Below are positions 8,835-57,098 of a DNA stretch of 60,904 bases, in pieces. Each line of letters starts with the position of its first letter. The first letter of the stretch is position 1. The position numbers and the translations under genes are program-made. The notes beneath the pieces are model-generated. The model saw only the letters and a program-made list of their open reading frames with translations. It was not told the origin of the DNA and did not search any database. Origin of the DNA: Candidatus Coatesbacteria bacterium (GTDB lineage Bacteria; RBG-13-66-14); contig WJLX01000079.1 of assembly GCA_014728225.1 (NCBI GenBank), positions 1 to 60,904 of the forward strand. Direction: 5' to 3'.

Positions 8835-9027
8835 CGCGGCGAGACCTTTTGTCGACGGGTCCAAAAGGAGCGGCGTCAACTGCAGGGGTTGCGCCGCCGG
8901 AACCGGCACGGTTTTTGCATCTCGGCGACCGTTGGAGCGGCGGCAACGCTCCGCCTCCGCAAAAACCGTGCCGGTTCCGGCTCGTGGGAAGGGGCGGTTC
9001 AGCGGCTCGACAAAAGGTCTCGCCGCG
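8835..9027. repeat. Nested-palindrome element, copy 1
   Basis: Outer IR cgcggcgagaccttttgtcga / tcgacaaaaggtctcgccgcg; inner IR gccggaaccggcacggtttttgc / gcaaaaaccgtgccggttccggc. Confidence 0.95.
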
Positions 9028-9034
9028 GAGCGCC

Positions 9035-10303
9035 TCAGCCGTGGATGGTCGAGCCGCTTTCCACCTGGCGGTCGTGGAAGGCTCGGGGGTCGGTGACGTC
9101 GGGGTGGATGACGACGTTGCGGCCGATGGAGGTCTGGCGCGGGATGCGGGCGTTGCGTCCGACGACGGTCAAGCCGCTGTCGTACTTCTGCGGTTCTTCG
9201 GTGTTGGGGGACTTGTTTTCCCCGGTGCCCAGCAGGGTCTCGACGCCGACGACGACATTCTTGTCGATGATGGCGTGGTCGACGACGGCGCCTTCCTCGA
9301 TCACCGTGTCCGAGAAAATGATCGAGTCGCGCACCACGGCGCCGGAGTGGATCTCGACGTGGGGCGAGATGACGCTGCGCTGGACCACGCCGTTGACGCT
9401 GGAGCCGTTGGAGAGCAGGCTCTCCGAGACCTTGGCCCCTCGACCAAGGCGCACCGCCGGGGCCTCGGCCGAACGGGTGTGGACCCGGTGGTCGGTGTCG
9501 TAGAGATCGAACTCGGGTAACGGGCTGAGCAGGTCCATATTGGCCTGCCAGTAGCTCTGGATGGTGCCCACATCGCGCCAGTAGCTCTCCTGGAAGCGGT
9601 GGACGCGGATGCCGAGGCGTCGTTCGACGCAGGTGGGCAGAATGTTCTTACCGAAATCGTGGGCCGAGTCCTCGAGCACGGCGTCCTCGACCAGCAGCTC
9701 ATCGAGCAGCTCGAGGTCGAAGATGTAGATGCCCATGTTGGCCAGGTTGCTGGGCGGATCGGGCACCTTCTCCAGGAAGCGGGTGATGGTGCCGTCCTCG
9801 TCGGCCTCGATGACGCCGAAGCGCGGAGCGTCCTCCCAGGGGACCTCCATCGCCGCCACGGTGACCCGGGCGCCGGACTCCTTGTGCTCGGCGATCATCC
9901 GAGCGTAGTTCATCTTGTAGATGTGATCGCCGGAAAGGATCAGCGCCCGTTCCGGTTTCTGGTCGCGCAGCCAGGGCAGGTTTTGGAAGACGGCGTCGGC
10001 CGTGCCCCGGTACCAGCCGTCGACCTGGCCCCCCGGGTGGGGATGCAGCAGGGTCAACCCGCCCTCGAAGCGGTTGAGGTCCCAGGGCGCCCCCCGGCCC
10101 AGGTGGTGCATCAGCGAGTGCGGCCGGTACTGGGTCAGTACGCAGACGTTGTAGACCAGGGAGTTGACGCAATTGGAGAGGGTGAAGTCGATGATCCGGT
10201 ACTTGCCGCCGAAGGGTACGGCGGGCTTGGCCCGCTTGGCGGTCAGTATGCCGAGGCGGTTGCCCCGGCCCCCGGCCAGGATGACGGCCATGGTTCTCTG
10301 CAC
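9035..10303 (-). CDS. glgC: Glucose-1-phosphate adenylyltransferase
   Basis: [61 protein letters not shown] motifs; left-handed beta-helix C-terminus. Confidence 0.97.
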
Positions 10304-10396
10304 TGCGACTCCTCCCGCTGGATTGCCTTGTGCGTAACTAGGCGCTTGGACCGCTTTCGATTATAACAACAAACCGGGAGCCTGACAGCCCCCGGT
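10250..10396 (-). repeat. 147-bp direct repeat A: glgC promoter, SD and first codons
   Basis: Matches 13136-13282 with 11 mismatches and no gaps by manual alignment; contains TG-T-TATAAT extended -10 and GGGAGGAG SD on the minus strand. Confidence 0.92.
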
Positions 10397-10425
10397 TTCC
10401 TCTAGTGCCTTGCGCTTGATGAGTA

Positions 10426-10639
10426 ACGGCCCGGGCGAGACCTTTGAAAACAACCCATCGACCGCCTCGACGGTTCGAAGGCTCTCGCCGCCGGAACCGG
10501 CACGGTTTTTGCATCTCGGCGACCGTTACGAACGATGATAACGCTCGGCCTCCGCAAAAACCGTGCCGGTTCCGGCGGGGGTGCGGCCGCTGGTCACGGT
10601 TGGTGCTCGAGTTGTTTTCAAAGGTCTCGCCCGGGCCGT
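10426..10639. repeat. Nested-palindrome element, copy 2
   Basis: Perfect ~29-bp outer IR acggcccgggcgagacctttgaaaacaac; same conserved inner core as copy 1. Confidence 0.95.
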
Positions 10640-10642
10640 CGG

Positions 10643-10918
10643 TCAGTATTTGAGCGCCGCGCCTTCTTGTTGCTGGACGTGTTTGAAGAACTCGCATTTC
10701 GTCAGGCAGTGGCGCATTTTCTGCGCCCAGTTACCCTGGATGCGATCCTGGCAGAGGGTTCCCTCGACCATCCAGCAGTAGCGCCCGGCGTGCTGACCGT
10801 GGTTGTAACCGTCGAATTTCTGGTTGGTGAACACGGGGCAGACGCCGTACTCGCTTTCCCTGACTCCACCGGGTTGTCGGCCGCAGTCCATGTATTGCCA
10901 GCAGTTTTCCCTGGTCAT
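10643..10918 (-). CDS. Small Cys-rich two-CW-type domain protein
   Basis: NCWQYMDCGRQPGG...GVCP...GRYCWMVEGTLC...C..CEFF pattern; AGGAG SD. Confidence 0.8.
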   Translation of the reverse strand: MTRENCWQYMDCGRQPGGVRESEYGVCPVFTNQKFDGYNHGQHAGRYCWMVEGTLCQDRIQGNWAQKMRHCLTKCEFFKHVQQQEGAALKY

Positions 10919-11149
10919 AGTACAAGGCTCCTGATAATGGTCGAATTCATTATATCACGAAATAAGGATATTCTACTCATACAATACGGTATTTATCCGT
11001 TAAGGCGGGGACAGCCGTAGGTTATGGTGCGCGCGGGGGAACCGCTGTCTCGGCGGTGCTCGGTGTGTCGGGGTTGGTGACGGCCGGGTTGGTGGTTGTC
11101 GGTGGGGTGGATTTGGCCCAATGGCCCCAGCTGGTTGCTCATAGGCCGC

Positions 11150-13092: not shown

Positions 13093-13129
13093 AAAGGACG
13101 GGAAACGGTGGGAACTGGTCGTTCGGGGT

Positions 13130-13189
13130 TCAGCCGCCGAGGCGGTTGCCCCGGCCCCCGGCGAGGATGACGGCCATGGTTCGCTGCAC
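13130..13189 (-). pseudogene. Truncated duplicate of the glgC 5' end (19 codons)
   Basis: [19 protein letters not shown] matches the start of glgC, then stops. Confidence 0.88.
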
Positions 13190-13282
13190 CGCGACTCCTC
13201 CCGCTGGATTACCTCGTGCGTAACTCGGCGCTTGGAGCGCTTGCGATTATCACAACAATCCGGGGGCCTGACAGCCCCCGGT
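13136..13282 (-). repeat. 147-bp direct repeat B (copy of glgC upstream region)
   Basis: About 92% identical to 10250-10396; the -10 reads GATAAT instead of TATAAT. Confidence 0.92.
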
Positions 13283-13432
13283 GGGAGGATACTCCACGAC
13301 AGGTCTATTCGGTTCGTTGTATCGGACCCGACTTGTCAGGCGGCACTGATTAGAGTTAGCGACAGTTCATCTCGAACCACTTTTGTCGAAAAGACAGCCA
13401 GAGGCTCACAACCCAGAAACGCTATGGATGAG

Positions 13433-14020: not shown

Positions 14021-14057
14021 CTCCCCGAAACCAGGACCCGCAGATGGTCGTTGAGTT

Positions 14058-14087: not shown

Positions 14088-14137
14088 CTCCAGCAGTGTG
14101 CCATCACGAAGACAGAGCTAGCCGCTTGCCATCGCCA

Positions 14138-18351: not shown

Positions 18352-18555
18352 GGCGGCGACCTCTGAAAAACAGCCGGCGCGAAAGCCACTGAACCACGGC
18401 ACCACAGCGCGTCGGAACTGGCACGGTTTTTGCATCTCGACGACCGTTACGAGCGACGATAACGGTTCGCCTCCGCAAAAACCGTGCCAGTTCCGACGCT
18501 TTCCCGTTTCGGCTGTGTGGTGATTTTTCGGGGCTGTTTTTCAGAGGTCGCCGCC
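18352..18555. repeat. Nested-palindrome element, copy 3
   Basis: Outer IR ggcggcgacctctgaaaaacagcc; inner IR gcgtcggaactggcacggtttttgc with compensatory changes in the partner arm; overlaps the selA stop codon. Confidence 0.95.
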
Positions 18556-20020: not shown

Positions 20021-20335
20021 ATGAAGAAACTACTCACTCTCACCTTGATCGGCATTTTCGCGCTGGTCGCGCTGAGCTTCACCGCCTGCGAGAGCGAAGA
20101 GGAAGAGGCCGCTGAGGAGGCCGCTGCCGCGCTCGAGGAAATGGGCGAGGAGATGGAAGCCGCCGCCGAAGAAGCCGCCGCCGAAGCCGAGGAAATGGCC
20201 GCCGACGCTGCTGAAGCCGCTGAGGAAGCCGTCTCCGAAGCCGAGGAAGCCGCTGATGAGGCCGCCGCTGAAACCGAGGCCGCCGCTGAAGAGGCCGAAG
20301 GTGAGGCTGAGCAGACCGAAGAGTCCGCTCAGTAA
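20021..20335 (+). CDS. Small Ala/Glu-rich low-complexity lipoprotein
   Basis: MKKLLTLTLIGIFALVALSFTAC lipobox followed by EEAA repeats. Confidence 0.8.
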   Translation: MKKLLTLTLIGIFALVALSFTACESEEEEAAEEAAAALEEMGEEMEAAAEEAAAEAEEMAADAAEAAEEAVSEAEEAADEAAAETEAAAEEAEGEAEQTEESAQ

Positions 20336-20353
20336 CCAATCTTCACCAATCCT

Positions 20354-20563
20354 GAAGGGGCCTGGATTCAGGCCCCTTCTTTTTACGGCGCACGTCGGTT
20401 TTATCCCGGGGCGCAGCAATCACCCATGTACGCGTAGAAGGGGCCTGGATTCGGGCCACTTCTCTTTTTTATCGCCGGATCAGTTTATCGCCGGATCAGT
20501 CTTTTCCCTGGGCTCAGTTATCACCCACGTTCACGCAGAAGGGCCTGGATTCGGGCCCCTTCT
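20354..20563 (+). repeat. Three tandem copies of a terminator-like hairpin
   Basis: (a)gaaggggcctggattc(a/g)ggcc(c/a)cttc at 20354, 20436 and 20537, each followed by a T-rich tract. Confidence 0.85.
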
Positions 20564-20868
20564 CGTTTACGCCTTTTCGAGAAAGCAGCGAGGGCTTCCC
20601 GCTACCTGAGGAAGCTCGCGAGGTAAGGCGTTCAGCTCCCCAACAATTGCGTTACCCGACCAATCAGCCGAGCTGCCTGCCGCCTCTTTAAGCCAAGTGA
20701 GTACCGTTTCGTCACCCCGGGCTAACCGGTTTGAGCAGCCGCCCCTACTCCGGTCGCCGTCACGGTTCTTGCATTCCGGGTTCGACCCGCCGCTGCGGGC
20801 CGAACCCGGGCAAGAACTCGCGCCGGCGCCCGCGCTCTACACGACTGGGGTACACCGAGTCGTGAGAA

Positions 20869-29336: not shown

Positions 29337-29538
29337 GCCGGGACCTTTGAAAAACAGCAAACCCCAACGGCCGCCAATCGCCGGACGGCCCGCGCCGGAA
29401 CTGGCACGGTTTTTGCGGAGGCGGACCGTTATCGTCGTCCGTAACGGTCACCGAGATGCAAAAACCGTGCCAGTTCCGGCGCAGCGGGACAGCCGTACCG
29501 CAAGGCTCTTGCGCGTTTGTTTTTCAAAGGTCCTCGGC
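29337..29538. repeat. Nested-palindrome element, copy 4 (opposite orientation)
   Basis: Outer IR ggacctttgaaaaaca; inner IR gcgccggaactggcacggtttttgc. Confidence 0.95.
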
Positions 29539-32877: not shown

Positions 32878-32888
32878 CCCCAACGGGA

Positions 32889-33093
32889 CCGCAACCGACC
32901 TTTGAAAAGCAGCCCGCGGCGGCGCAATCCGTCAAACAAAACCCCGCCCCGGAACTGGCACGGTTTTTGCGGAAGCGGACCGTTATCATCACCCTAACGG
33001 TCGGCGAGATGCAAAAACCGTGCCAGTTCCGGGGCTGAAGTGTCAAGCAGCGGTGAAGGTCCTGGGAGTCTGCTTTTCAAAGGTCGGCTGCGG
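32889..33093. repeat. Nested-palindrome element, copy 5
   Basis: Outer IR ccgcaaccgacctttgaaaagcag / ctgcttttcaaaggtcggctgcgg; conserved inner core. Confidence 0.95.
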
Positions 33094-33145
33094 TGTGCAA
33101 AGCGGACCCGGTGGGACGGGTCCGCGGGGTATCTTAACTGTTTGG

Positions 33146-34929: not shown

Positions 34930-35134
34930 CCGGCGGCGGCGACCTTTTTCCATCGCACGACTAGCGCGCTGCGACACGCTAAACCGCCGGAACCGGCACG
35001 GTTTTTGCATCTCGGCGACCGTTGGAACGAATGTTAACGGTCCGCCTCCGCAAAAACCGTGCCGGTTCCGGCGGTTTAGCATCGGGGCGGTCCTGCGCCT
35101 CGGGCTACGCTGCTTTAAAGGTCGCCGGCGGCGG
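34930..35134. repeat. Nested-palindrome element, copy 6
   Basis: Inner IR extended to gctaaaccgccggaaccggcacggtttttgc; outer arms ggcgaccttt / aaaggtcgcc. Confidence 0.92.
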
Positions 35135-40965: not shown

Positions 40966-41174
40966 CGCCGGACAACCGTTGAAAAACAGCCCGCCGGCTA
41001 CTCCCCACTGCGTCGGGAACGGCAAAGTGCCGGAACTGGCACGGTTTTTGCGGAGGCGAACCGTTATCGTCGTCCGCAACGGTCGCCGAGATGCAAAAAC
41101 CGTGCCAGTTCCGGCATCGTGGTTCTCGCAACGCCGCGGATCGTCTGGGGCTGTTTTTCAACGGTTGTCCGGCG
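40966..41174. repeat. Nested-palindrome element, copy 7
   Basis: Perfect ~27-bp outer IR cgccggacaaccgttgaaaaacagccc; conserved inner core. Confidence 0.95.
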
Positions 41175-44600: not shown

Positions 44601-47600
44601 GCCCGGGCCGTGCGCTCCCCCGACGGCACGGTGCGTTACTACGAAGGCACCGTCGAAGATCTGACCGAACGGCGGCGTACCGAGCAGGCCCTGGCCGATA
44701 GCGAGGAGCAGTACCGCCTGCTGGCCGAAACCGCCGACGACGTCATCATCATCCACGACATCCAGGGTCGGATCATCTATACCAATCCCGCCGGTGTGGA
44801 CAAATTGGGCTACACAGCCGCGGAACTGATCGGAAGCCCCATCGACGATTATCTCGCCAACAGCGGCGACACGGCTATCGACGAGCGACGCCGACGGCGC
44901 CGGGCCGGTGAGCAGGGCGTTTTCTCCTATGAACGCGAGGTTGTGGCCAGGGACGACCGCCGCCTGCTGATGGAGATCAACTCCTCGATGATCGAGCGCG
45001 AGGGTGAGCCGTGGGGCATCCTGCTGATCGCCCGGGACATCACCGAGCGTCGCAGCGCCGAGCTGGAACTCGAGCGGGCCAACGCCCGCCTGCGGGCCCT
45101 GGTGGAGGAGAAGGAGGCCGCCGAGGAGCGCTACCGCAGCCTGCAGGAGAACCTGCCCCTGGGCGTCTACCGGGTCACCCCGGCCGGGGAGTTCATCGAG
45201 GTCAACGACGCCTTTGTCAAGCTCTTCGGTTTCACCGATCGGGAGGAGCTCTTCCAGCGGCGGGCCGTCGAGCTGTACGTGGACGAGGAACGCCGCACGG
45301 AGCTGATGGAGGCCATGCGCCGCGACGGCGTGGTCAACGGCTTCCAGGCCCGCCTGCACCGGGCCGACGGCCAAACCTTCTGGGTCTCGATCGACGTCCG
45401 CGCCGTGCGCGACGCCGCCGGTGAGGTCGTCTATCACGACGGCATCCTGACCGACATCTCGGCGGTCAAGCGCGCCGAAACCGTCCGCGAGGTTCTGTTC
45501 AACATCGCCAACGCCATCAACACCTGCGAAAGCACCGACGAGCTCTACCCCCTCATCCACCGCAACCTGTCGCGGATCATCGACACCACCAACTTCTTCA
45601 TCACCCTCTACGACCGTGAGCCCAACCTTCTCGTCTTCCCCTACTACGTCGACAGCAGGAAAGAGAGTCTGACGGAGTTCCCGGCCGAGCAGACGGTCAG
45701 CCACTACGTCATCCGCAGCGGCGAGACCCTGCTGGCCGACGACGAAGTCTTCGACGAGCTGATCGAACGGGGCGAGATCGCCCCCCGGGGCCGGATGGCC
45801 AGCCCCCGGGTCTGGCTCGGAGCGCCGCTCAAGCGCGGCGATGAGGTCTTCGGTGTGGTGGCCGTCCAGAATTACGACGATCCGCGAACCTACGACGAGC
45901 ATGACCGCGAGCTGCTGGAGACGGTCTCCAGCCAGATCGCCAACGCCGTCGACAAGCTGCGGACCGAACGGGCGCTGCGCGATTCGGAGAACCGCTTCCG
46001 CACCCTCTACGAGAACATGGCCGGCGGAGTGCTGATCATCGATGAGGAATACGTCATCCGCGACATCAACGAGCACACCTGTCAGATCACCGGCTACGAC
46101 CGCGCAGAGCTGGTCGGCGAACCGTGCGACATCATCTGTCCCAAGGGCTCCGATTCCGGTGAGTGCCCCATCTGGGCCGAGGGCCAAGACGGCTTCCGCG
46201 GGATGGATACCACCATCAAGTGCCGCGACGGGCGGCTGAACCCGATCCTGAAAAACGCCAATCGTATCGAGCTCGACGGTCGGACCTACATCATTGAGAA
46301 CTTCCAGGACATCTCCGACGTCAAGCGCGCCGAGACCGTTCAGGACGTCCTGTTCGCCATCGCCAATTCGATCAACACCTGCGAGCGCCTCGACGACCTC
46401 TACCCGATAATCCATCGCAACCTGGCCCGGGTCCTGGAAACCACCAACTTCTTCATCGCCCTCTTCGACGAGTCCAGCAACACCCTGCGCTTCCCCTACT
46501 TCGCCGACGTCGACGAGATCCTCAAGGAGTACCCGGCCGAAAAAACCCTCTGTCATTACGTCGTCCGCCGGGCCGAGGCGGTGCTCGTTGATTCTGCAGG
46601 CTTCGATGAACTCGCTGAAACCGGGGAGATCGAACCACGTGGCGACCTCAAACGACCCCGCGTCTGGCTGGGCGCGCCGCTCAAGCGCGGCGACGAGGTC
46701 TTCGGCGTGGTGGCCGTTCAGAGTTACGACGACGACGCGGCCTACAACGACGACGACCGGGAGCTGCTGCAGCTGATCGCCCACCAGATCGCCAACGCCG
46801 TCGACGAACTCCAGGCCGAGCAGGCCCTGCGGGAGAGCGAGGAGCGCTTCCGGCGGATGGCCGACAACATCTCCGACGGCCTGGCGATCATCGAGGACGG
46901 CCGCGTCGTCTATGTCAACGAGCGGTTGTGCGAGATCCTCCAGCGCGAGCGCGCCGAGATCGAGGCCGGGCTGACCGGGATCGACATCGCCGCCCCCGAC
47001 GAGGTCGAACGCCTCGAGCGCCTGCGCCGCCGAACCCTGGAGAGCGGTGAGCCCCTCCGCTCGCTGGAGTTCTGGATCGAACGCCCCGACGGCGAGCGCC
47101 GCTGCATCCACAACCGCTACTCCCACAGTATTACCCCGGACGGCGTTCGAAACCGCTACGTGGTCACCTCGGACATCACCGAGCGCAAGCTGGCCGAGCG
47201 CGCCCTGCGGGAGAGCGAGGACAAGTTCCGCCTGATCAGCGAGAACTCGCTGATGGGTATCCTGATCCTCCAGGAAGGGGTGATCAGGTACGCCAACCGG
47301 GCGATGACCGACCTGACCGGCTATACCCCGGAGGAGCTGCTGGCCTGGGATCCCGGCGAGTTCGCCCGCCTGATCCATCCCGAGGATCGGGGCTTCGTCA
47401 TCGAGCAGAGCACGAAAAAGCAGCGCGGCGAAACCACGGGGATCATCCCTCATTACTCCTACCGCGGCGTGGCCAAGGACGGCAGGATCGGCTGGATCGA
47501 CCAGTACTCCACCTCGATCTCCTATCAGGGGGCTCCGGCGGTGCTGGTGATGATGGTCGAGATCACCGAGCAGAAGCGGGCCGAGGAGGCGTTGCAGGAA

Positions 47601-50600
47601 TCCGAGCGCTTCAACCGCGCCGTCGTCGAGCACCTGCCCCTGGGGGTCAGCGTGCGCACCACCGAGGGCCGCCTGATCCTGGCCAACGAGGCCTGGCGCC
47701 GCATCTGGGCCGTACCCGAGGACGAACTGGCCCGGGATCGCTCCGCGACGCGCGGTGAGTTGAGCTTCGACGAGCGTGACCATTACCTGGGCGACTGGCG
47801 CGACAAGGTCCGCAGCATCTACAGCGAGGGCGGCTACCTGCACATCCCGGAACTGGCGGTACTCGAGCCCCGGCCCGGCGGAGCGTTATGGGTCTCCCAG
47901 CACTTCTACGCCCTGACCGACGCCGACGGCGTCGTCAACCGGGTGGTGATCCTGACCGAGGACATCACCGAACGCAAGTTGGCCGAGGAGAAAGAACGCG
48001 AATACATCACCCACCTGTCCCTGTTGACGGAAACGGCGCTGGACTTCGTCCGGATGGATCCGGGCACCGACATCTTCGCCTACCTGGCCCGACGACTCTG
48101 CGGAATGCTCGACAACGCCCTGGTCACCGTATCGCAATACGACGCCCGGACCGAGCGGATGAAGGTGCGCTCGATTGAATGCTCGGCCGCTGAAGCCCCG
48201 CCGCTGGTGACCAGCCTGTGCAATAATCCCGAGCTGACCTACGAGCTGCCCGGTGAGGGCGACGTCAAGAGCCTGCACGGCGAGCTGGAGATCTACCCCT
48301 TCGACGACAACGTGCTGAAGCAGTGGGGGGTGCCCGACGAGCTGGTCGAGGGCCTGGCTGGGGAGCTGGGCGTCGAGGTGATCGCCTCGATGGGCCTGGT
48401 GCGCGAGGGCGTCCTCTACGGCATGGTCGATATCATCCTCCTCAACGGCGCCCGGATGACCAAGGGCGAGGTGGTGGAGACCTTCCTCAACCAGGCCTCG
48501 GTAGCGCTGCAGCGCACGCTGTCCGAGCGGGCCCTGGCCGAGAGTCGCGAAGCGCTGAGCCAGTACGCCGACAATGTGGCCGACGTCCTCTACCGCATCA
48601 ATCTCGAGCAGAACCGCTTCGAATTCGTCTCCCCGGCGGTGGAGCAGGTCTTGGGCTATGGAGTCGACGAGGTGATGCACCGTAGCGGCTTCGCCTTCAC
48701 CGAGGTCCTGCCCGCGGAGGAGAAGGACGCCTTCCTCGAGCGCCTGCGGGGCTTCCTCGCCACCGGTCCGACCGAGCGTCCCCTGGTCTTCGAGAGCCGG
48801 CTGCAGCGCCGTAACGGTGAGCTTTTCTGGGCCCGGCATTCGATCCGCTACGAGTGGGACGACGACGGCCACCCAGTGGCCGCCAGCGGCATCCTCTCCG
48901 ACATCACCGAGCGCAAGCGCACCGAGCTCGAGCTGGCGGATAGCGAGGAACGCTTCCGCCGCTTCGCCGGCGCCGTCACCGACACCATCTACCGCTTCGA
49001 CATCCGCCGCCAGGCCTACGACTTCATCAGCCCCTCCTGTGAGCGCCTGACCGGCTACAGCGCCGAGGAGTTCATCGAGGGGGCCCACGACATCTGGCGC
49101 CGGATCATTCATCCCGACGACATCGAGATGGTCTACCGCAAGCTCGACGAGCAGAGCGCCCAGCGTCGCCGCGAACACCGCTTCAGCATGGACTACCGTA
49201 TCCTGCACAAGGACGGCCGGACGATCTGGGTCAACGAGCGCGGCGACTACGAACTCGACGAGAACGGCGAGATCCGCAGCTACAACGGCGTCATCCGCGA
49301 TATCAGCGAAACCCGTGAGGCCGAGGCGGCTCTGGCGGAAAGCGAGCGGACCTACCGCAGCCTCTACGACACCACCCTGGCCCTGGCCGACGAACGCGAA
49401 CTCAGCAAGACCATCGCCGTCATCGCCGAGCACGCCACCAACCTGCTGGGCGCCGAGGAAAGCCATTTCTTTCTCCTCGACCACGACCACGGCGTCCTGC
49501 GGCCGATCTACACCAACAACGCCGCCTTCGCCGCCGAGATGGAGAGCTTCGAACTGCCCCTGGGAACCGGGCTCACCGGCCTGGTGGCCCAGAGCGGTCG
49601 GGGGCGCTTCATCAACGCCGGCGATCCCGAGCTCGAGCACGCCGTCCATCTGCCGGGCACCGATCCGGCGGTCGACGTCACCGAATCCCTGATCAGCGTG
49701 CCGGTCTTCGACGGCGAGCGGGTCAGCGGGGTGCTGACCCTGGGCAGCGGCCGCAGCCGCTTCGACGACGAGGATTTGCAGCGCCTGACCGTCTTCGCCC
49801 GTCAGGCCGAGATCGCCGTCAAGCGCGCCCGCTACCTCGAGCGCCTGGCCGAGTCCGAGGAGGTCTACCGCAGCCTCTATCAGACCACCCTGGCCGTCAC
49901 CGACAAGACCGATCTCGACGAGGTTCTAGAGGTGCTGGTCAACCAGGCCGGCAAGCTGCTCAAGGCGCGTTACTGCACCATCTACCGCCTGCTGCCCCGG
50001 CGCGGCGTCCTCCAGCCGCTCAAGACCACCTCCGCCGAGACCTACGATCAGGTGATGGCCTACCAGGTCGAGCTGGGCCGGGGGCTGACCGGCACCGTGG
50101 CCCGCACCGGCGTGGGCCGTTACGTCAACGCCGGCGACGAGGACCGCTCGGTCATCGCCCAGCTACCGGGAACGGAAAGCGAACTCGATCAGTACGAATC
50201 CCTGCTCTGCGAGCCGATCCTCGACGGCGACGAGGTCAGCGGTGTACTGACCCTTTCCAAGCTCTACGCCGCCTTCGATGATCGCGACCAGGAGATAATC
50301 CGCATCTTCGTCCACCTGGTCTCCCTGGCCCTGCGCCGGGCCGAGAACGTCGCCGCGCTGCGCGAGAGCGAACAGACCTACCGTCGGCTCTACGACACCA
50401 CCCTGGCTTTGGCCGACACCGACGAACTCGAGGTCTCGATCCGGGTCATCGCCGAGCACGCCGCCGAACTGATCGACGCCGCCGTCTGCATCTTCTACCG
50501 CTACGACGAGGAGCGGGAGAAGCTGGTCCCGATCTATACCAACGAACCCGAGGAACCCGACGAGGTGATGAGCTTCGAGGCGCCCCTGGGGATGGGGTTG

Positions 50601-53600
50601 ACCGGTCGCGTGGCCCAGAGCCGCCGCGGCGCCTACTCCAACTACGACGAAGACCAGCGCCCCGTGGCCACCATCCCGGGCACGACCAATCAGAGTAAAA
50701 CCAACTCCCTGATCGCCGTGCCCATCTCCGACAGCGATGAGTTGCTCGGGGTGATGACCCTGATCGCCCCCCGGCGGCGTTTCACCGACGAGGACCTCAA
50801 CCGCCTGGGCATTTTCTCCCGCCAGGCCGAAATCGCCGTCAAGCGCGCCCGCTACCTCAACGCCCTGGCCCAGAGCGAACAGACCTACCGCCGACTCTAC
50901 GACACCACCCTGACCCTGGCCGACACCGACGAGCTGGCGACGGCCGCCGAAGCTATCGCCCACCAGGCCAAGCTGACCCTGGAATCCCACTTCTGCATCG
51001 TCTTCCTCTACGAAGCCGACGACGAGCGGCTGGTGCCGCTCAGCGTCGACGCCCCCGCAGCCGTCGAGGAGCTCAAGGCGGCCGTCATGGCCCTGGGTGA
51101 GGGCCTGACCGGTCGGGTGGCCCGGGATCGGGAGGGAGCCTACGTCAACTATGACGAGCCGGAGCGCAAGGACAGGCACGTTCCGGGCACACCGGCCGAG
51201 GACGACGAGCGCCAGTCGACCATCGCCGAACCGATCATGGACGGCGAGAATCTGCTGGGCGCCGTCACCCTGGGGACCTACGACCGTCGCTACGATGACG
51301 ACGACCTGACCCAGCTGCGCGTTTTCGCCCGGTTGGCCGCCATCGCCGTCAAGCGTAACCAGTACATCCGGGCCCTGGCCGAGGGCGAGGAGACCTACCG
51401 CCGGCTCTACGAGACGACCCTCGTCCTGGCCGACAACGACGACCTGGACGAGGTCGTCGCCGTGATCGGCGACCAGGCGACCCAGATGCTCGATTCCAAC
51501 TTCTGCATCGTCTACACCTTCGACGAGGACGAGCAGGTCCTGCGACCGCTCTACACCAACACCGACACCGATCCGGACACGATCTATTCCTTCCGGCTCA
51601 AGCCCGGCGAGGGCCTGGTGGGCAGGGTGGCCGTCGAGCGCCGGGGTGCCTACGACAACTACAACGACCTCGAGCGCAAGGTCGTCTACATCGAGGGCAC
51701 CGACGACTCGACCGATCACCTGCAGTCGATCATCGCCGAACCGATCACCGACGGCGACCGCCTGCTCGGTGTCCTCTCCATCGGCCAGGTCGAGCGGGTC
51801 TACAACGAGGCCGACCTGGGGAAGCTGCGCATCTTCGCCCGCATGGCCGCCGTCGCCATTCTGCGCACGCGCAACCTCCACGCCCTGGCCGAAAGCGAGG
51901 AGAAACACCGCACCCTGGTCGAGCAGGCCACCGACGGCGTGATCATCGTCCAGGACGGCCTGATCAAGCTGGCCAATACGGCGATGGCCGAGCTTTCCGG
52001 TTTCTCCATCGACGAGCTGGTCGACACCCCCGTCAGTGAATATATCGATCCGGCGGACATCGACAAGGTGATGGACAACTACCGGCGGCGCCTGAACGGC
52101 GAAAGCGACGTGCCCCATATCTACGAGATCCAGGGCCTGACCAGGGACGGCAAACGTATCCCCCTGGAGCTCAACGCCGGGGTGATGACCTATCTGGGCC
52201 AGCGCGCCGTGCTGGTGCTGGTGCGCGACATCACCGAACGGCTCGAAGCCCGGGAGAGCATCCGCCAACTCAACTCCACCCTGCGGGCCCTGCGCAACAT
52301 CAGCCAGTTGATCACCGTCGAGAAGAACCCCGCCGAGCTGATCGACGGCGCCTGCGAGCAACTGACCCAAAGTCACTACGACCAGGCCTGGATCGTACTG
52401 CTCGACGACGACGGCGACGTCACCACCATGGCCTACCGCAGTTCCTTCGACAAGTCCCTTGAGGAGTCGGGCTATGAAACGACGGCCGATCTGCCCTTGT
52501 GCCTGCGGCGGATCGCCGAAGCCGAAGACAACGTCCTCGCCGGAAACTGCGACGACTGCCCCCTGTTCGACAACGGAAAAGTGAGTTATCTGGCCGCGCG
52601 TCTCGAATACGGCGACCGCGTTTTCGGCTATCTGTCCCTGGGCGGCATCGAAGGCAACGTCCCGGAGCGCGAGGAACGGGAGCTGATCGTCGAGCTGGCC
52701 AACGACCTGGCCTTCGCCCTGTACTCGATCGGGCTGGAGCGCAGCCAGGCCGAGACCGAGCGCCGCTCCCGCTACTACGTCGAGCACATCTCCGAGGGGG
52801 TCTGGTGCTTTGAACTCGAGCCCCTGTCCCTGGAGCGGCTCAGCGACCCCGCCCTGCGTGAAGCCAATCTCGAGCTGCTGTTTTCCGGGATCTGCGTGGA
52901 GTGCAACGACGCCCTGGCGGAGATGTACCTTACCCGGCGCGAGGAGCTGCTGGGCCGGCGGATGAGTGAGGTCTTCCCCCGGCGCGAAACCCTCCTCGAA
53001 CACCTGCAGCGCTTCCTGGACAACGACTGCCGCCTGGACAACAGCGTTTTCGGCGAGCTAACCCCCGCGGGCGAGCAGCGCTGGTTCATCGCCAGCATGT
53101 TCGGCGAGATCGTCGACGAACGCCTGGTCCGGCTCTGGGGTCGGCAGCTCGACATCACCGAACAACGTCGCGCCGAGGCCGAGCGTGATCGTCACCGCCG
53201 CGAGGTCCAGGCCATCTTCGACAACATGGACATCATGCTCTGGAGCATGCGCCTCGATGACGAGGGCTACCTGTACTACGAGCAGGTCAACCGCCCCTTC
53301 GCCGCCGTCGAGGGCCGAACGCCGGATTTCTACAACGGCGAGCGGATCGTCGATATCGCCGCCCCGGAGCAGGTCGCCGCCATGCGTCGGCGCTTCGAGC
53401 ATATCGCCGACGGAGCCGTCCACTCCTACGAACTCGATGTCGGCGCCGGCGAAAACCGGCGGGCCTTCGACATCCGGCTGATCCCCCTGCCCGAGGCCGG
53501 CGGCGAGGTCCGCTGGTTCATCGGCACCGCCATCGACGTCACCCGGCGCAAGCAGGCCCTGGAGGCCCTGCGGGAGAGTGAGGAGAAGTACCGGGCCTTC

Positions 53601-55460
53601 ACCGAAGAGGCCATGATCGGGGTCTACATCCTCAGCGGCGATGAGTTCATCTTCGTCAACCATCAAATGGAGGTTATCTCGGGTTACCCGGCCGCAGAGC
53701 TGCTGCGGATGGATCCCGTCGAGCTGGCCCCGGAAGCCGATCGCGGGAAACTGCTGGAACGCCGGCGCAGCCGGGGCACCGACGCCGGACTCTCCCCCGA
53801 GTTCATCACCCGCCTGGTCCGTAAGGACGGCGAGATCCGCAACGTCGAGATCCACGCCCGGCCGATCACCCTCGAGGGCAAAACCGCCATCCTGGGCAAC
53901 CTGATCGACATCACCGAGCGGCGGCGGGCCCAGCAGGCCCTGGCCGAAAGCGAGGAGCGCTACCGCTCCATCTGGAACCGCTCGCCCATCGGCATCTGCC
54001 TGACCGACCGCGGCGGCGATCTGACGATGGCCAACCCGGCCCTGTGCGGCATGTTGGGCTATGACGAGGACGAACTCATCGGCAGCCGCTTCTACGACCT
54101 GTTGATCTTCGCCTACGATGAAAGCGAAAGCGGGGTCGAGGGACTGCTGTCCGGCAAACTCGATACCCAATCCTACCGCAACCAGTTCTCCCTGTTCAGC
54201 GGCAAGCCGACGGAGCTGGTCATGCGTCGCAAGGACGGCGGCTTGCTGCCCGTCGAGTTCACCGTGGACTTCATCTCCCGCGAAGGCTCGGTGCGCTACA
54301 TGATCGCCCTGATCACCGATATCACCGAGCGCAAGCGTGCCGAGGAGGCCCGGGCCAACTATCAGGCCGACCTCGAGCGCGAGGTGGCGGCCAAGACCGA
54401 GCAGCTCAGCATCGCCCGCCGCTACCTGCGCGACGTGCTGGACTCCTCGGGCGAGCTGATCACCGTCTGCGACGCCGCTGGCAACCTGGAGATCCTCAAC
54501 CGCACCGCCGCCTCGCTGACCGGCTACGACGAAGACGAGGTCCTCGGCGAACACATCTCGCTGTTCTACTATCAGAAGGACCTCAAGCTGCTCGGGGAAA
54601 TCCACAAGCGCATGACTGACGGCGGCGGTACGGCGGTGTTCCAGGTCGATATCCGCTGCCAGGACGGCAGCCCCCTGCCCGTCGAGCTGTCCGTCTCGCC
54701 CCTGCACGACGAGAACGGTGATTTCACCGGCTCCGTCGGCATCGCCCGCAACCTGCAGGAGATAGAAGACCTGCGCAAGGCCCTGCTGCAGTCGGAGAAG
54801 CTGGCCGCCATCGGCAAGCTGGCCGCCAGCATCGCCCACGAGGTCAACAACCCCCTCGGGGTGATCAAGAACTACCTGCAGATCGCCAAGCTGGACCTGG
54901 AAAGCGGCTCGGAGAAGTACCGCCTACTGGGGATCATCGAGGAGGAGGTCCAGCGCATCGTGCGGATCATCCAGGGCCTGCTCAACTTCTACCGCCCCGA
55001 AAGCACCACCGTGGTGGCCACCGATATCAACCGCATCATCGAGGACCTGTTGCTGCTGGTAGGTATCCAGCTCGAGAAGAACGACATCAGCGTCGAGAAG
55101 AATCTCGCCGAGACCCTGCCGCCCGTCATCGTGGCCCCGGACCAGTTCCGTCAGATCATGCTCAATCTGGTCACCAACGCCCAGGACGCCATGCCCGACG
55201 GCGGCGTGCTGGGCCTGGGCACAGCCTTCCGGGAGGGCCACGTAATCATCACCGTCAGCGACACCGGCCACGGGATCGCCAAGGGCGACCTGCCCAACAT
55301 CTTCGATCCCTTCTTCACCACCAAGGGCCAGAAGGGCACCGGCCTGGGCCTCTCGATCAGCTACGGCCTGATCAAATCCTTCGACGGCGAGATCGAGGTC
55401 GACAGCCGACCGGGACAGGGCTCGACCTTCACCATCCATCTGCCCAGCCGGGAAGCCTGA
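41670..55460 (+). CDS. Giant cytoplasmic multi-PAS/GAF sensor histidine kinase (4596 aa)
   Basis: About 20 PAS/PAC modules (ending in DITE-like motifs) and about 10 GAF modules; HisKA AASIAHEVNNPL; HATPase NLVTNAQDAM, DTGHGI, FDPFFTTK, GTGLGL; no TM segment seen. Confidence 0.93.
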   Translation: MMKDERKTKAQLIEELKELRRRLAELTSETVAELRGRGEVVDAAEKSGVDLYRLLVEHAPVGVLLADTGGNLKLVNEKLVELLGSPSTELTLAINLLEFQPLVESGFSGLFKSAADGGETLVQELSYRSHWGRELEARVQLTPILNADDRVEAVLGLIEDVSRVKLMERALEQTEHRYETLLDLVPDGVVIVDEELMVGAVNDRALEILGRGNRAKLLGTDGLALLGGREADKAADNAEKLRALGRTRGAEYELRRPDGETIIVGVRASVLGTAERPAGYLVILRDLTDYRRAEERLRRSEERLREVVEGAELGYWDWDIAAGTLHLNERWASMLGYSLDEVEASYEGWRELVHPEDLERVESELQRHLDGESEAYECEYRMRSADGGWSWILSRGKVRERDVAGQPLRAAGIHQDVGKRRRAELERDESRRRLQSFVEKVPDVLYRADLRAKRFEFLASSVERMLGYPYGEVWNDFKNFTLKVLHPDDRERVEDEVRTFIGNGPRDETLEITARMIRSDGRIIWVRDSIRYEWDDEGLAIVNGVMTDITSQVETEQSYRALVEEALVGVYIFHPPAEPDDPGRFMFVNDEMSRITGYSKDELLALDTGELTHPDDHRPLMDRMAERLEGREVPSRYTMRIRRRDGRTAVLRVSTRPITYRGRQAFLGNCSDVTETVNYEEELQSRVKHSETLADLSGVFFETAGREEILSRAADLLAESFPVFVSLNLLDAERGKLVMAEYRTDDKLLNFLNDLVGRPLDGWEIPLDQDSVISRTMTSGRPTVCGLDFTPDEEVEKTTLVEMLRAMVEEKSPLRRLAGRAAKRMGAAGLLGIPFIDSSGRIVGSLTVLSRETFGRDDYNLAKVAADQIGRALEQHRLNEELRASEERFRSVFSNVHLGVYRTTPDGRILLANQAMVEMMGFTTLEELLDHNLETNGYQPQLSRADFKRELEERGEIVGREYTWTKRDGRTLYVRESARAVRSPDGTVRYYEGTVEDLTERRRTEQALADSEEQYRLLAETADDVIIIHDIQGRIIYTNPAGVDKLGYTAAELIGSPIDDYLANSGDTAIDERRRRRRAGEQGVFSYEREVVARDDRRLLMEINSSMIEREGEPWGILLIARDITERRSAELELERANARLRALVEEKEAAEERYRSLQENLPLGVYRVTPAGEFIEVNDAFVKLFGFTDREELFQRRAVELYVDEERRTELMEAMRRDGVVNGFQARLHRADGQTFWVSIDVRAVRDAAGEVVYHDGILTDISAVKRAETVREVLFNIANAINTCESTDELYPLIHRNLSRIIDTTNFFITLYDREPNLLVFPYYVDSRKESLTEFPAEQTVSHYVIRSGETLLADDEVFDELIERGEIAPRGRMASPRVWLGAPLKRGDEVFGVVAVQNYDDPRTYDEHDRELLETVSSQIANAVDKLRTERALRDSENRFRTLYENMAGGVLIIDEEYVIRDINEHTCQITGYDRAELVGEPCDIICPKGSDSGECPIWAEGQDGFRGMDTTIKCRDGRLNPILKNANRIELDGRTYIIENFQDISDVKRAETVQDVLFAIANSINTCERLDDLYPIIHRNLARVLETTNFFIALFDESSNTLRFPYFADVDEILKEYPAEKTLCHYVVRRAEAVLVDSAGFDELAETGEIEPRGDLKRPRVWLGAPLKRGDEVFGVVAVQSYDDDAAYNDDDRELLQLIAHQIANAVDELQAEQALRESEERFRRMADNISDGLAIIEDGRVVYVNERLCEILQRERAEIEAGLTGIDIAAPDEVERLERLRRRTLESGEPLRSLEFWIERPDGERRCIHNRYSHSITPDGVRNRYVVTSDITERKLAERALRESEDKFRLISENSLMGILILQEGVIRYANRAMTDLTGYTPEELLAWDPGEFARLIHPEDRGFVIEQSTKKQRGETTGIIPHYSYRGVAKDGRIGWIDQYSTSISYQGAPAVLVMMVEITEQKRAEEALQESERFNRAVVEHLPLGVSVRTTEGRLILANEAWRRIWAVPEDELARDRSATRGELSFDERDHYLGDWRDKVRSIYSEGGYLHIPELAVLEPRPGGALWVSQHFYALTDADGVVNRVVILTEDITERKLAEEKEREYITHLSLLTETALDFVRMDPGTDIFAYLARRLCGMLDNALVTVSQYDARTERMKVRSIECSAAEAPPLVTSLCNNPELTYELPGEGDVKSLHGELEIYPFDDNVLKQWGVPDELVEGLAGELGVEVIASMGLVREGVLYGMVDIILLNGARMTKGEVVETFLNQASVALQRTLSERALAESREALSQYADNVADVLYRINLEQNRFEFVSPAVEQVLGYGVDEVMHRSGFAFTEVLPAEEKDAFLERLRGFLATGPTERPLVFESRLQRRNGELFWARHSIRYEWDDDGHPVAASGILSDITERKRTELELADSEERFRRFAGAVTDTIYRFDIRRQAYDFISPSCERLTGYSAEEFIEGAHDIWRRIIHPDDIEMVYRKLDEQSAQRRREHRFSMDYRILHKDGRTIWVNERGDYELDENGEIRSYNGVIRDISETREAEAALAESERTYRSLYDTTLALADERELSKTIAVIAEHATNLLGAEESHFFLLDHDHGVLRPIYTNNAAFAAEMESFELPLGTGLTGLVAQSGRGRFINAGDPELEHAVHLPGTDPAVDVTESLISVPVFDGERVSGVLTLGSGRSRFDDEDLQRLTVFARQAEIAVKRARYLERLAESEEVYRSLYQTTLAVTDKTDLDEVLEVLVNQAGKLLKARYCTIYRLLPRRGVLQPLKTTSAETYDQVMAYQVELGRGLTGTVARTGVGRYVNAGDEDRSVIAQLPGTESELDQYESLLCEPILDGDEVSGVLTLSKLYAAFDDRDQEIIRIFVHLVSLALRRAENVAALRESEQTYRRLYDTTLALADTDELEVSIRVIAEHAAELIDAAVCIFYRYDEEREKLVPIYTNEPEEPDEVMSFEAPLGMGLTGRVAQSRRGAYSNYDEDQRPVATIPGTTNQSKTNSLIAVPISDSDELLGVMTLIAPRRRFTDEDLNRLGIFSRQAEIAVKRARYLNALAQSEQTYRRLYDTTLTLADTDELATAAEAIAHQAKLTLESHFCIVFLYEADDERLVPLSVDAPAAVEELKAAVMALGEGLTGRVARDREGAYVNYDEPERKDRHVPGTPAEDDERQSTIAEPIMDGENLLGAVTLGTYDRRYDDDDLTQLRVFARLAAIAVKRNQYIRALAEGEETYRRLYETTLVLADNDDLDEVVAVIGDQATQMLDSNFCIVYTFDEDEQVLRPLYTNTDTDPDTIYSFRLKPGEGLVGRVAVERRGAYDNYNDLERKVVYIEGTDDSTDHLQSIIAEPITDGDRLLGVLSIGQVERVYNEADLGKLRIFARMAAVAILRTRNLHALAESEEKHRTLVEQATDGVIIVQDGLIKLANTAMAELSGFSIDELVDTPVSEYIDPADIDKVMDNYRRRLNGESDVPHIYEIQGLTRDGKRIPLELNAGVMTYLGQRAVLVLVRDITERLEARESIRQLNSTLRALRNISQLITVEKNPAELIDGACEQLTQSHYDQAWIVLLDDDGDVTTMAYRSSFDKSLEESGYETTADLPLCLRRIAEAEDNVLAGNCDDCPLFDNGKVSYLAARLEYGDRVFGYLSLGGIEGNVPEREERELIVELANDLAFALYSIGLERSQAETERRSRYYVEHISEGVWCFELEPLSLERLSDPALREANLELLFSGICVECNDALAEMYLTRREELLGRRMSEVFPRRETLLEHLQRFLDNDCRLDNSVFGELTPAGEQRWFIASMFGEIVDERLVRLWGRQLDITEQRRAEAERDRHRREVQAIFDNMDIMLWSMRLDDEGYLYYEQVNRPFAAVEGRTPDFYNGERIVDIAAPEQVAAMRRRFEHIADGAVHSYELDVGAGENRRAFDIRLIPLPEAGGEVRWFIGTAIDVTRRKQALEALRESEEKYRAFTEEAMIGVYILSGDEFIFVNHQMEVISGYPAAELLRMDPVELAPEADRGKLLERRRSRGTDAGLSPEFITRLVRKDGEIRNVEIHARPITLEGKTAILGNLIDITERRRAQQALAESEERYRSIWNRSPIGICLTDRGGDLTMANPALCGMLGYDEDELIGSRFYDLLIFAYDESESGVEGLLSGKLDTQSYRNQFSLFSGKPTELVMRRKDGGLLPVEFTVDFISREGSVRYMIALITDITERKRAEEARANYQADLEREVAAKTEQLSIARRYLRDVLDSSGELITVCDAAGNLEILNRTAASLTGYDEDEVLGEHISLFYYQKDLKLLGEIHKRMTDGGGTAVFQVDIRCQDGSPLPVELSVSPLHDENGDFTGSVGIARNLQEIEDLRKALLQSEKLAAIGKLAASIAHEVNNPLGVIKNYLQIAKLDLESGSEKYRLLGIIEEEVQRIVRIIQGLLNFYRPESTTVVATDINRIIEDLLLLVGIQLEKNDISVEKNLAETLPPVIVAPDQFRQIMLNLVTNAQDAMPDGGVLGLGTAFREGHVIITVSDTGHGIAKGDLPNIFDPFFTTKGQKGTGLGLSISYGLIKSFDGEIEVDSRPGQGSTFTIHLPSREA

Positions 55461-55644
55461 ACCGCAGGCGCAGGAAAACAAAACGGTCGGATAATAGAAG
55501 TTTGCACCCCAATTATTGTATGATTAACCCGCTGGTCGCCGTCGTCGCCGGCGAGTCGCCTCCCTTGTCCCCCAAACGATACCGGCGCCGGTCGACCCGC
55601 CACCCTCGCAACGTCGCGAACGGCTACACCCCAAACACACTCCG

Positions 55645-56778
55645 ATGTCCTCTACCACCAGCAGCACCGAACGCCGACGCCGTGTCGGCCCGCAGATCGA
55701 GCGCATCCTCGTCATCGACGATGAGCGGCGGATGTGCGAATCGATTCGCATCCTCCTCGAGAAGGAAGGCTACCGCGTCGTCACCGCCGCCGACGGCTCC
55801 GAGGGTATCGAGAAACTCAAGAGCGAGCGCTTCAGCCTCTGCATCGTCGACCTGATGATGCCCAAGGTCGACGGCTTCGAGGTGCTGGCCTACGTCCGCA
55901 ACAACCTGCCCCAGACCCTGGTGATCGTCATTACCGGCTACTCGTCGATGCGTTCGTCGATCGAGGCTCTGCGCGGCGGTGCCTACGACTACCTGACTAA
56001 GCCCTTCGACTTCGATATCTTCAAGCTGACCGTCGAGAAGGCCCTCGACAAGCTGCGCATCCAACGCCTCAACGACGAGTTCATCTCGATGATCACCCAC
56101 GACCTGAAAAACCCGCTGACCTCGATCATCGGCTACTGCTCGTTATTGCTCTCCGGCGCCTACGGCAAACTCGCCGGCGAGATCCTGCCACCCCTCGAAG
56201 GCATCAACACCAACGCCGAGCGCTTGCTCGACCTGATCAACGATTTCCTCGTCGTCAACAAGATCTCCGCCGAGGGGCTCAAGCTCGAACGCCAGCCCAT
56301 CCAGCTCAACAGCCTGCTCGAGCACCTCTCCGACAACGTCCAGGCCCAACTGGAGATCAAGAAGATCCACTTCACCCTGCGCCTCGACGCCGATATCCCC
56401 CCGGTCAAGTGCGACGCCCTGCAAATCGAACGGGTGATCAACAACCTACTGTCCAACGCCGTCAAGTTCACTCCGATGGGCGGCAGTATCTCGATTGCAT
56501 CGGGCGCCGACGACGACTGGGTCTGGTTCGCCGTCACCGACACCGGCACGGGCATCCCTCCCGAGCAACAAGAAGACATCTTCCAGAAATACTCGCGCAT
56601 CGACAAGAAGACCGAGGGCACCGGCCTGGGCCTGTTCATCACCAAGAGCATCGTCGACCTCCACCAGGGCTTGATCGAGATCGAGAGCACCCCGGGGGAG
56701 GGCTCGACCTTCACCGTCCGTCTACCCCTCCACCCCCCCGAAGAAAACACCGACGGTAACGGCGGCGGCGGCGGTTAA
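55645..56778 (+). CDS. Hybrid receiver-histidine kinase (REC-HisKA-HATPase)
   Basis: ILVIDDE, IVDLMMP (phospho-Asp), YLTKPF; MITHDLKNPL; NLLSNAVKFT, DTGTGI, GTGLGL. Confidence 0.93.
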   Translation: MSSTTSSTERRRRVGPQIERILVIDDERRMCESIRILLEKEGYRVVTAADGSEGIEKLKSERFSLCIVDLMMPKVDGFEVLAYVRNNLPQTLVIVITGYSSMRSSIEALRGGAYDYLTKPFDFDIFKLTVEKALDKLRIQRLNDEFISMITHDLKNPLTSIIGYCSLLLSGAYGKLAGEILPPLEGINTNAERLLDLINDFLVVNKISAEGLKLERQPIQLNSLLEHLSDNVQAQLEIKKIHFTLRLDADIPPVKCDALQIERVINNLLSNAVKFTPMGGSISIASGADDDWVWFAVTDTGTGIPPEQQEDIFQKYSRIDKKTEGTGLGLFITKSIVDLHQGLIEIESTPGEGSTFTVRLPLHPPEENTDGNGGGGG

Positions 56779-56905
56779 ACCAACCCGGGCGTCGACGTGT
56801 TACAATCTCGCGTGAAAACGAGCCTCGAACGCGGGCTCGCTTTTAGCGACGGGGCCGCACGTAATAATGGGCAGCCCACGACAAAGACCGGCACCGCTGA
56901 ACGAC

Positions 56906-57098
56906 GGCGCAAGACCCTTGAAAGCCCGGCCCGACGACCAGGCTCGTCTCCGCCCCGGAACCGGCACGGTTTTTGCGGAGGCGGACCGTTGTCGTCGCAC
57001 CAACGGGCGCCGAGATGCAAAAACCGTGCCGGTTCCGGGGCGGGTGGGGTCTCAGCGAAAGGCACAGGCCCCGGCGGGGCTTTCAAGGGTCTTGCGCC
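56906..57098. repeat. Nested-palindrome element, copy 8
   Basis: Perfect 22-bp outer IR ggcgcaagacccttgaaagccc; conserved inner core. Confidence 0.95.

Follow-up and report, generated by a model that had tools for sequence, protein, structure and literature searches.

Several families of bacterial intergenic repeats, among them REP, ERIC and Correia, carry terminators, parts of sigma-70 promoters and protein-binding sites. The Correia elements of Neisseria (CREE/NEMIS) have sigma-70-type promoter parts at their ends, a site for integration host factor (IHF) and a TA target duplication, and we know of no cognate transposase for them. Promoters recognized by sigma-54 hold the polymerase in a stable closed complex and give no transcription before an ATPase activator comes into play. 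Here we describe a family of nested palindromes of which eight copies lie in the window, a 60,904-nt stretch that makes up contig C33 of a metagenome-assembled genome of an uncultured Candidatus Coatesbacteria bacterium (MAG; G000 below, 2.96 Mb in 181 contigs, 65.8% G+C). The organism is present in samples of hypersaline microbial mats (ERZ922774/PRJEB25599, JGI 3300012002). Each copy carries two sequences that match the sigma-54 consensus and face one another across a short interior. No repeat family with paired sigma-54 promoters as its conserved payload was found in the literature we searched, and as far as our searches reach the present family is undescribed. On balance, we lean slightly towards reading the sequences as an old family of DNA palindromes, akin to miniature inverted-repeat transposable elements (MITEs), that is kept by selection and would scatter paired sigma-54 docking sites or promoters through the genome.

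The initial annotation had placed eight copies in the window and assigned them a common nested architecture, and reading of the sites together with a repeat search of the window confirmed all of them (Table 1). An outer inverted repeat of 18-29 bp, usually with GACC(T/C)TTGAAAA and nearly perfect within a copy, encloses two linkers that are unrelated to each other and an inner stem of 25 bp (CCGCCGGAAC[C/T]GGCACGGTTTTTGC). The inner stem is followed by an asymmetric ATCTC / CCTCC internal loop, and a small GGCGACCGTT/AACGGTCGCC stem carries the terminal loop, about 12 nt long. The compensatory arm variants were as first described: C..G in copies 1, 2, 6 and 8, T..A in copies 3, 4, 5 and 7, and GTCGG/CCGAC in copy 3. 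From the eight copies, RNAalifold derives the nested structure with double changes in 25/60 pairs, and the proposed covariation, once tested, lay above 500/500 shuffles and every slid control on all five measures. One copy folded as single-stranded DNA has a free energy of -91.3 kcal/mol (z = -12.45).

The inner arm, TGGCACGGTTTTTGCA, matches the sigma-54 -24/-12 consensus TGGCACG-N4-TTGCW on both strands. The two boxes face inward, so that predicted starts fall inside the interior. In both arms of every window copy, the GG and GC doublets stand one helical turn apart within TGGCAC-N5-TTGC, with CGGCAC in place of TGGCAC in copies 1, 2, 6 and 8. The motif TGGCAC-N5-TTGC occurs at 259 sites in G000, against about 6 expected by chance. 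The matches that lie outside the palindromes number 35, and about 20 of these are single intergenic sites 10-150 nt upstream of genes; the rest are mostly half elements at contig ends. These single sites share the consensus TTGGCAC[GA]nTTCTTGCA and look like native promoters, which makes the box of the elements, judged by its sequence, the organism's own putative promoter motif. The genome encodes rpoN (contig C157) and eight full-scoring Sigma54_activat genes (ten hits over the cut-off). When arms were ascertained by their interior only, GG and TTGC were the least variable positions, and the changes comprised 15 mirrored vs 25 single-arm changes, the mirrored ones avoiding GG and GC.

A search with the outer-arm motif gave paired hits about 170 bp apart in two further genera, the sister genus g2 (genomes G001 and G004) and g3 (including G002), and the copies fetched from them share the architecture. 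The outer-arm consensus GAGACCTTTG.AAAAC is common to all three genera, though individual copies diverge. The g2 arm, GGCGTTGGCACGTTTCTTGC(A), differs from that of G000 in its upstream bases and two spacer bases and keeps every sigma-54 position. The sigma-54 pair is thus a payload that has outlasted a change of arm sequence. It had been suggested that the folded structure rather than the primary sequence is maintained; for the inner arms this fails, since the box positions are kept across genera. Copies of the g2 type number 123 in G001, 184 in G004 and one in G000, and copies of the G000 type number one each in G001 and G004. Generic facing boxes were counted at 111 in G000, 148 in G001 and 215 in G004, with 1-2 in two other genomes of the family and 0 in the other 20 of the phylum. 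In g3, the outer arm is as in the rest of the family and the interior is different. At loci L036-L038 of G002, the outer arm is GAGACCTTTGCAAAAC and the interior is made of CAAGGGG...CCCCTTG hairpins, with no facing sigma-54 boxes. The g3 elements suggest that one set of ends can carry different cargoes, and since the outer arm is common to genera whose interiors differ, it is the deep end, resembling a terminal inverted repeat (TIR).

One copy is evidently ancient. In G001 and G004, the G000-type element occupies the intergenic site that in G000 holds an element on contig C148; on one side of it is a terminator, and on the other a TraF_2-like outer-membrane gene with its sigma-70-like promoter. 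Between the genera, the 25-nt arms of this copy differ in one co-varying C..G / T..A pair and are otherwise identical, and nothing can be aligned in its linkers, outer arms or interior. Since g2 has no further arm of this type, copying from paralogues cannot explain this conservation.

Substitution rates were obtained from seven orthologous pairs between G001 and G004 (five full pairs for the test of paired positions). The two genomes are 92-93% identical across three syntenic blocks, and as a neutral reference their third codon positions are 11.2% divergent and their DNA outside open reading frames 10.5%. The 14-nt inner arms show 0/182 substitutions (0%) and the stem extension 1/97 (1.0%); linkers have changed at about the neutral rate (52/501, 10.4%) and interiors at 50/301 positions (16.6%). 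Among 125 pairs of outer-plus-extension positions in the five full pairs, there are three single-arm changes and no double change. Inner arms and paired outer positions are under strong constraint between species; in linkers and interiors the rate of change equals or exceeds the neutral one. Unbiased copying from arm to arm would leave the neutral rate as it is, and the roughly tenfold deficit therefore indicates purifying selection on paired positions. Arm-to-arm templated repair had been offered as the means by which each copy is homogenized; unbiased repair alone fails to account for paired positions that change about ten times more slowly than linkers. Selection on pairing explains why arms match within a copy and differ between old copies.

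These data can be brought together in the following model. The elements, of an old and lineage-wide family met with in a single Coatesbacteria family, are assembled from three kinds of parts: TIR-like outer arms, linkers that drift neutrally, and an inner palindrome in which consensus RpoN boxes face each other with an invertible interior of about 40 bp between them. The elements would have spread long ago by means of a mobiliser acting in trans, and would persist because they work as DNA. Their arms would be paired docking sites for sigma-54 RNA polymerase. The polymerase may, given an activator, start transcription outward across the opposite arm, or it may sit as a closed complex between genes. 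The pairing of the arms, with its potential for a hairpin or cruciform, would itself be selected: single-arm changes would be purged and only rare mirrored changes fixed, which would leave arms that match within a copy and differ between copies. A bolder version, which we put forward only tentatively, treats the elements as devices maintained by the host, either genome-wide activator-dependent bidirectional promoters or closed-complex insulators. There would then be several hundred modules with both boxes and both hairpin stems under purifying selection; the invertible centre would decide which box has the favourable TTGCA context, and the extruded stem would present a -24/-12 duplex ending in a fork-like internal loop at -12. 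Such a sigma-54 regulon would have been built and spread by a mobile palindrome.

A number of observations weigh against the view that selection keeps the elements as sigma-54 sites. The element boxes face inward, and the copies show no enrichment upstream of genes: a gene start lies ahead in about 46% of outward directions, vs 50% for all intergenic regions. The regions downstream of the element boxes are GC-rich, unlike those of the native promoters. An activator site common to the elements and the native promoters was not found, and the outer arm was rejected as a candidate for one, being absent upstream of the roughly 20 native promoters. The rate data come from five to seven pairs of the sister genus and not from G000. 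In G000 itself, conservation is much higher in the type-A interior than in the linkers, which is unexplained unless the interior is functional too. The ancient copy keeps all 25 arm bases, more than sigma-54 should need, and the constraint on its arms may in truth come from another protein or from the hairpin. Mobility rests on the shared ends and on two comparisons of filled and empty sites at 70-79% identity, and no target duplication, parent insertion sequence (IS) or transposase was found. In favour of the sigma-54 view, the linkers have a skewed composition. In the direction of the core, C makes up 40-43% of them, G 26-28% and T 10-14%, and C exceeds G in 81% of 378 linkers (all intergenic DNA has C = G = 30%). 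This C/A skew recurs in the sister genus and fades past the outer arms. Its direction is the one expected for the non-template strand of transcripts leaving the core outward, and other causes of the skew are possible.

The extrapolation from the window to hundreds of copies per genome was borne out. G000 has 237-238 copies with exact core arms, all short, non-coding, dispersed and about 200 bp long; counted by the generic box there are 251 pairs, and half copies occur at contig ends in addition. Placed against a rough self-trained gene map, essentially all are intergenic, with 127 between tandem, 49 between convergent and 31 between divergent genes; a further 13 nominally fall inside genes, at places where the gene ends, for the most part starts, are over-extended. 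An element is found in about 12% of intergenic regions, with some enrichment in convergent regions (49/323 vs 127/1343 for tandem ones). The placement of every copy downstream of a gene end holds throughout the window and fails genome-wide, given the copies between divergent genes. Both orientations relative to transcription do occur, as claimed, without bias (73 vs 52 genome-wide).

The consensus of 221 copies reads gcGaCC.ttGAAAAaC.gcC, linker, cCGCCGGAACcGGCACGGTTTTTGC ATCTCGGCGaCCGTT in its left half and AACGgT.CGCCTCC GCAAAAACCGTGCCgGTTCCGGcGg, linker, GGc.GtTTTTCa..GGTCgc in its right half. Outer arms were said to match within a copy and differ between copies, and this is so across the genome: an arm's own partner beats 30 foreign partners in 185/221 copies. 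Complementarity within a copy exceeds that across copies for the outer arm (28.0 vs 11.4) and the stem extension (20.6 vs 13.5), and is the same for the linkers (8.6 vs 8.6). The linkers are copy-unique, as proposed. No two G000 copies share one, their identity of 29-31% compares with 28.5% expected from composition, and their length has a median of 29-30 nt (5-95% range 15-37). Mirrored variants of the arms occur even in the core (CACAG/CTGTG, GGTAC/GTACC, GGAGTT/AACTCC). A subfamily B of about 22 copies has the same arms around a different, non-hairpin interior.

Three individual sites outside the window deserve mention. The sole sister-genus-type element of G000 (contig C45, about 1770-2100) separates two tandem paralogues, and about 45 bp of the paralogues' 3' ends recur on either flank of the element. 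Downstream of an element site shared by L012 (about 590-830) and contig C75 of G000 (about 3300-3700) there is a conserved promoter-like stretch, TTGACC-N17-TATCAT, and the conserved segment that follows it ends in a GGTGCGTTTTTT terminator, possibly marking a small RNA gene. On contig C63 of G000 (5640-7090), one element abuts the stop codon of an Xer-like tyrosine recombinase gene; this may be chance, since so many intergenic regions carry an element.

Resident copies descend vertically. In the syntenic blocks, G001 shares each of the six elements of G004, and the sole presence difference is one internal deletion, in which a G001 copy has lost 90 bp of core and kept the last bases of its right arm. 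This remnant indicates that outer repeats without a core are deletions and not empty targets. The interior flips by exchange between the arms: in one orthologue it is inverted between G001 and G004 with flanks, linkers and arms unchanged, and in G004 the two interior orientations, relative to the asymmetry just outside the arms, stand at about 10 to 9 (count by eye). At shorter range, strains 99.5-99.9% identical, which cover only copies 3-7 of those in the window, show these copies unchanged save for single-nucleotide polymorphisms (SNPs) in linker, loop and edge, and no strain-level gain, loss or flip was seen among them. Copy 3, for example, recurs in three other strains and differs there by two SNPs, of which one falls in a linker and the other in the loop. 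When closer relatives were sought via a flanking protein, the best match was 73% identical and not syntenic. Contigs of one or several sister species (sample Ga0272441), with flanks 70-88% identical, also carry such elements. Two sites filled there correspond to spacers of 126 bp and 34 bp in G000 at 70-79% identity, and at one site occupied in both, the two elements differ in orientation, arms and linkers.

A MITE-like origin, one of those first proposed, fits the outer-arm motif of three genera and the sites that are filled in sister species and empty in G000. Recent transposition was considered and rejected: no linkers are shared in G000, and weak similarity of paralogue linkers is found only in the sister genus. 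Two other origins were likewise set aside. The outer stem was rejected as an intrinsic terminator that hosts the core, as there is no T-run after the right arm, the outer motif is kept across genera as part of the element, and the core-less copy with its arm remnant is a deletion; on these grounds the inner palindrome was also rejected as a separate insertion into older hairpins. A blastn search against plasmids for a link to plasmid or known mobile DNA gave no match.

The same evidence bears on the strongest rival, which we regard as unlikely: that this is an ordinary selfish MITE or foldback element whose arms and ends bind its own, unassembled transposase or recombinase, the sigma-54 likeness being incidental or tolerated and of no function to the host. 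Such an element would account for a common outer arm around different interiors in three genera, for a different arm type expanded in each genus, for the filled and empty sites, and for an ancient copy that keeps all of its arm beyond what sigma-54 needs. Vertically inherited copies nevertheless keep constrained arms and stems, and a selfish element needs no constraint at each locus; in the sister genus, the lone arm of the other type has stayed conserved without a remaining family that it could serve. A chance TGGCAC-N5-TTGC in two independent arm sequences is also very unlikely, and it equals the native promoter motif. As to the machinery, the initial annotation saw no target duplication and no transposase, and neither has come to light: flanking direct repeats are no commoner than in shuffled pairs, and a search for a transposase with these ends found no long pairs of ends. 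No IS4/IS5-type DDE transposase or integrase flanked by the ends was found, and the genome has no DDE_Tnp_1 (IS4/IS5-type) gene, other transposase families not having been searched and MAG assemblies often losing IS copies.

Selection might instead act on RNA, an explanation we hold to be quite improbable. Read-through of either strand would fold into a hairpin that serves as a terminator, a 3'-end stabiliser or an RNase target, as in REP, ERIC and Correia elements, and the sigma-54 boxes would be secondary. Conserved paired positions with free linkers and loops are the classic pattern of stem selection, the palindrome folds alike from either strand, and the copies are intergenic with a mild excess between convergent genes. 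The mismatches in the stems (348/6756 pairs) argue otherwise. G-U-type mismatches, scored as G-T, are no more frequent than the A-C type overall (52 vs 52) or when scored by the sense strand of neighbouring co-directional genes (26 vs 36). The commonest are C-C (69) and G-G (60), and 26 strain SNPs are about 80% transitions (a hand count on a small sample). This hints that transition mismatches are removed from the stems, as would happen if mismatch repair acted on hairpin DNA. In addition, the outer stem lacks a T-run, 31 copies lie between divergent genes, and a hairpin in RNA gives no account of a sigma-54 box kept across genera. Rfam gave no match in the window at the gathering score and none at E<=1 on copy 2. 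The dispersed, strand-specific structured RNA raised at the outset is not favoured either, with orientation unbiased, the two mismatch types equal and an interior that flips between species. A hairpin substrate of an HUH enzyme (Y1, RAYT), as in REPINs or IS200/IS605, or an attC-like integron integrase site, also among the first suggestions, is highly improbable: hairpins in hundreds of copies, lineage-own sequence types as in REPIN populations and an undetected target duplication would suit it, but the element-rich G000 and G001 have no Y1/RAYT gene (PF01797), the element-poor genus g4 has Y1 genes without an expansion, the only two tyrosine recombinases are both Xer-like, and the copies stand singly among housekeeping genes in both orientations, with no cassette arrays.

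Table 1. Positions of the eight palindromes in the window, full elements being measured between the far ends of their outer arms, with the parts of copy 2 given individually.
Feature	Position	Strand	Description
Copy 1, full element	8835-9027	+	Outer arms 8835-8855 and 9007-9027 (CGCGGCGAGACCTTTTGTCGA); core 8905-8972
Copy 2, full element	10426-10639	+	Between the end of a sulfatase-like gene and a glgC-like promoter
Copy 2, left outer arm	10426-10454	+	ACGGCCCGGGCGAGACCTTTGAAAACAAC; perfect complement of 10611-10639
Copy 2, left linker	10455-10487	+	Copy-unique, unpaired, C-rich
Copy 2, left inner arm	10488-10512	+	CCGCCGGAACCGGCACGGTTTTTGC; sigma-54 -24/-12 box, reads rightward; predicted start about 12 nt into the interior
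Copy 2, interior	10513-10553	+	In order ATCTC, GGCGACCGTT, 12-nt loop, AACGCTCGGCC, TCC; asymmetric, invertible centre
Copy 2, right inner arm	10554-10578	-	Identical sigma-54 box, reads leftward
Copy 2, right linker	10579-10610	+	Copy-unique; + strand G-rich
Copy 2, right outer arm	10611-10639	+	
Copy 3, full element	18352-18555	+	TGGCAC arms; GTCGG/CCGAC stem extension
Copy 4, full element	29337-29538	-	Downstream of clpX
Copy 5, full element	32888-33094	-	Between a 541-aa gene and clpP
Copy 6, full element	34930-35134	+	Between M23 peptidase and alpha-2-macroglobulin genes; short outer arm (CCGGCGGCGGCGACCTTT)
Copy 7, full element	40966-41174	-	Downstream of the alpha-2-macroglobulin gene
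Copy 8, full element	56906-57098	-	Flanked by genes for a hybrid histidine kinase and a FemAB-like protein

In the window, the neighbours of the elements are housekeeping genes, encoding a glgC-like transferase, polyprenyl synthase, SelA, ClpX, ClpP, an M23 peptidase, alpha-2-macroglobulin, a PAS kinase and FemAB. The window holds other repeats as well. A 147-bp direct duplication, 93% identical (10250-10396 and 13136-13282), brackets about 2.9 kb and spans the promoter and 5' end of the glgC-like gene; copy 2 starts 30 nt past its first repeat. A long-range inverted repeat (353-513 and 58236-58395) lies near the contig ends, its arms of 71-95 nt being 57.7 kb apart and 79-85% complementary. 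Tandem repeats of 54 nt fill an acidic repeat region (20101-20571), where the alignment of another strain overlaps itself by about 218 bp, suggesting a difference in copy number. Finally, an open frame of 4596 aa (41670-55460) has many PAS domains and internal repeats of about 510 bp.

If the boxes are indeed bound, about 500 consensus sites in a 3-Mb genome would affect the amount of free sigma-54 polymerase, and would matter for antisense and read-out transcription between genes and for the rewiring of a regulon by a mobile element. Hundreds of copy-specific stems are apparently kept by selection on DNA pairing, and the family thereby offers a natural setting in which to ask if DNA cruciforms or hairpins have a function in vivo.

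The elements share features with several known systems without coinciding with any. Like sigma-54 promoters, they have the exact bases and spacing of TGGCACG-N4-TTGC(A), with GG and GC least variable in the arms, in a host that has rpoN, activators and about 20 native promoters of the same motif. Unlike those promoters, their boxes are paired face-to-face about 40 bp apart inside a repeat, at about 500 boxes per genome, with no activator site in common with the native ones, GC-rich DNA downstream and no gene-start bias. The asymmetric centre between perfect arms, found in both orientations, recalls the flip/flop terminal palindromes of parvoviruses and adeno-associated virus (AAV). This is an analogy only, as the elements are chromosomal, internal and non-viral, and the inversion is most simply recombination or template switching between arms and not rolling-hairpin replication. 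They resemble REP/BIME repeats and REPINs as dispersed intergenic palindromes of lineage-specific types with hairpin potential and long vertical persistence, and differ from them in the lack of a RAYT (Y1) gene, in their length of about 200 bp with two nested stems and unique linkers, and in that the conserved part is a promoter motif and not a REP hairpin. Correia elements are likewise intergenic and MITE-like, about 100-200 bp long with inverted ends, promoter elements and hairpins, and present in hundreds per small genome; the inward sigma-54 pair, the lack of a detectable duplication, the copy-unique linkers and the arms that differ between copies set the present family apart from them. 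With MITEs in general the elements have in common that they are short, non-coding and multicopy with terminal inverted repeats common to the family, unlike MITEs in that neither a target-site duplication nor an autonomous IS with the same ends was found. The family is thus best filed among the MITE/REP-like intergenic palindromes, with a facing pair of sigma-54 boxes as its distinctive payload.

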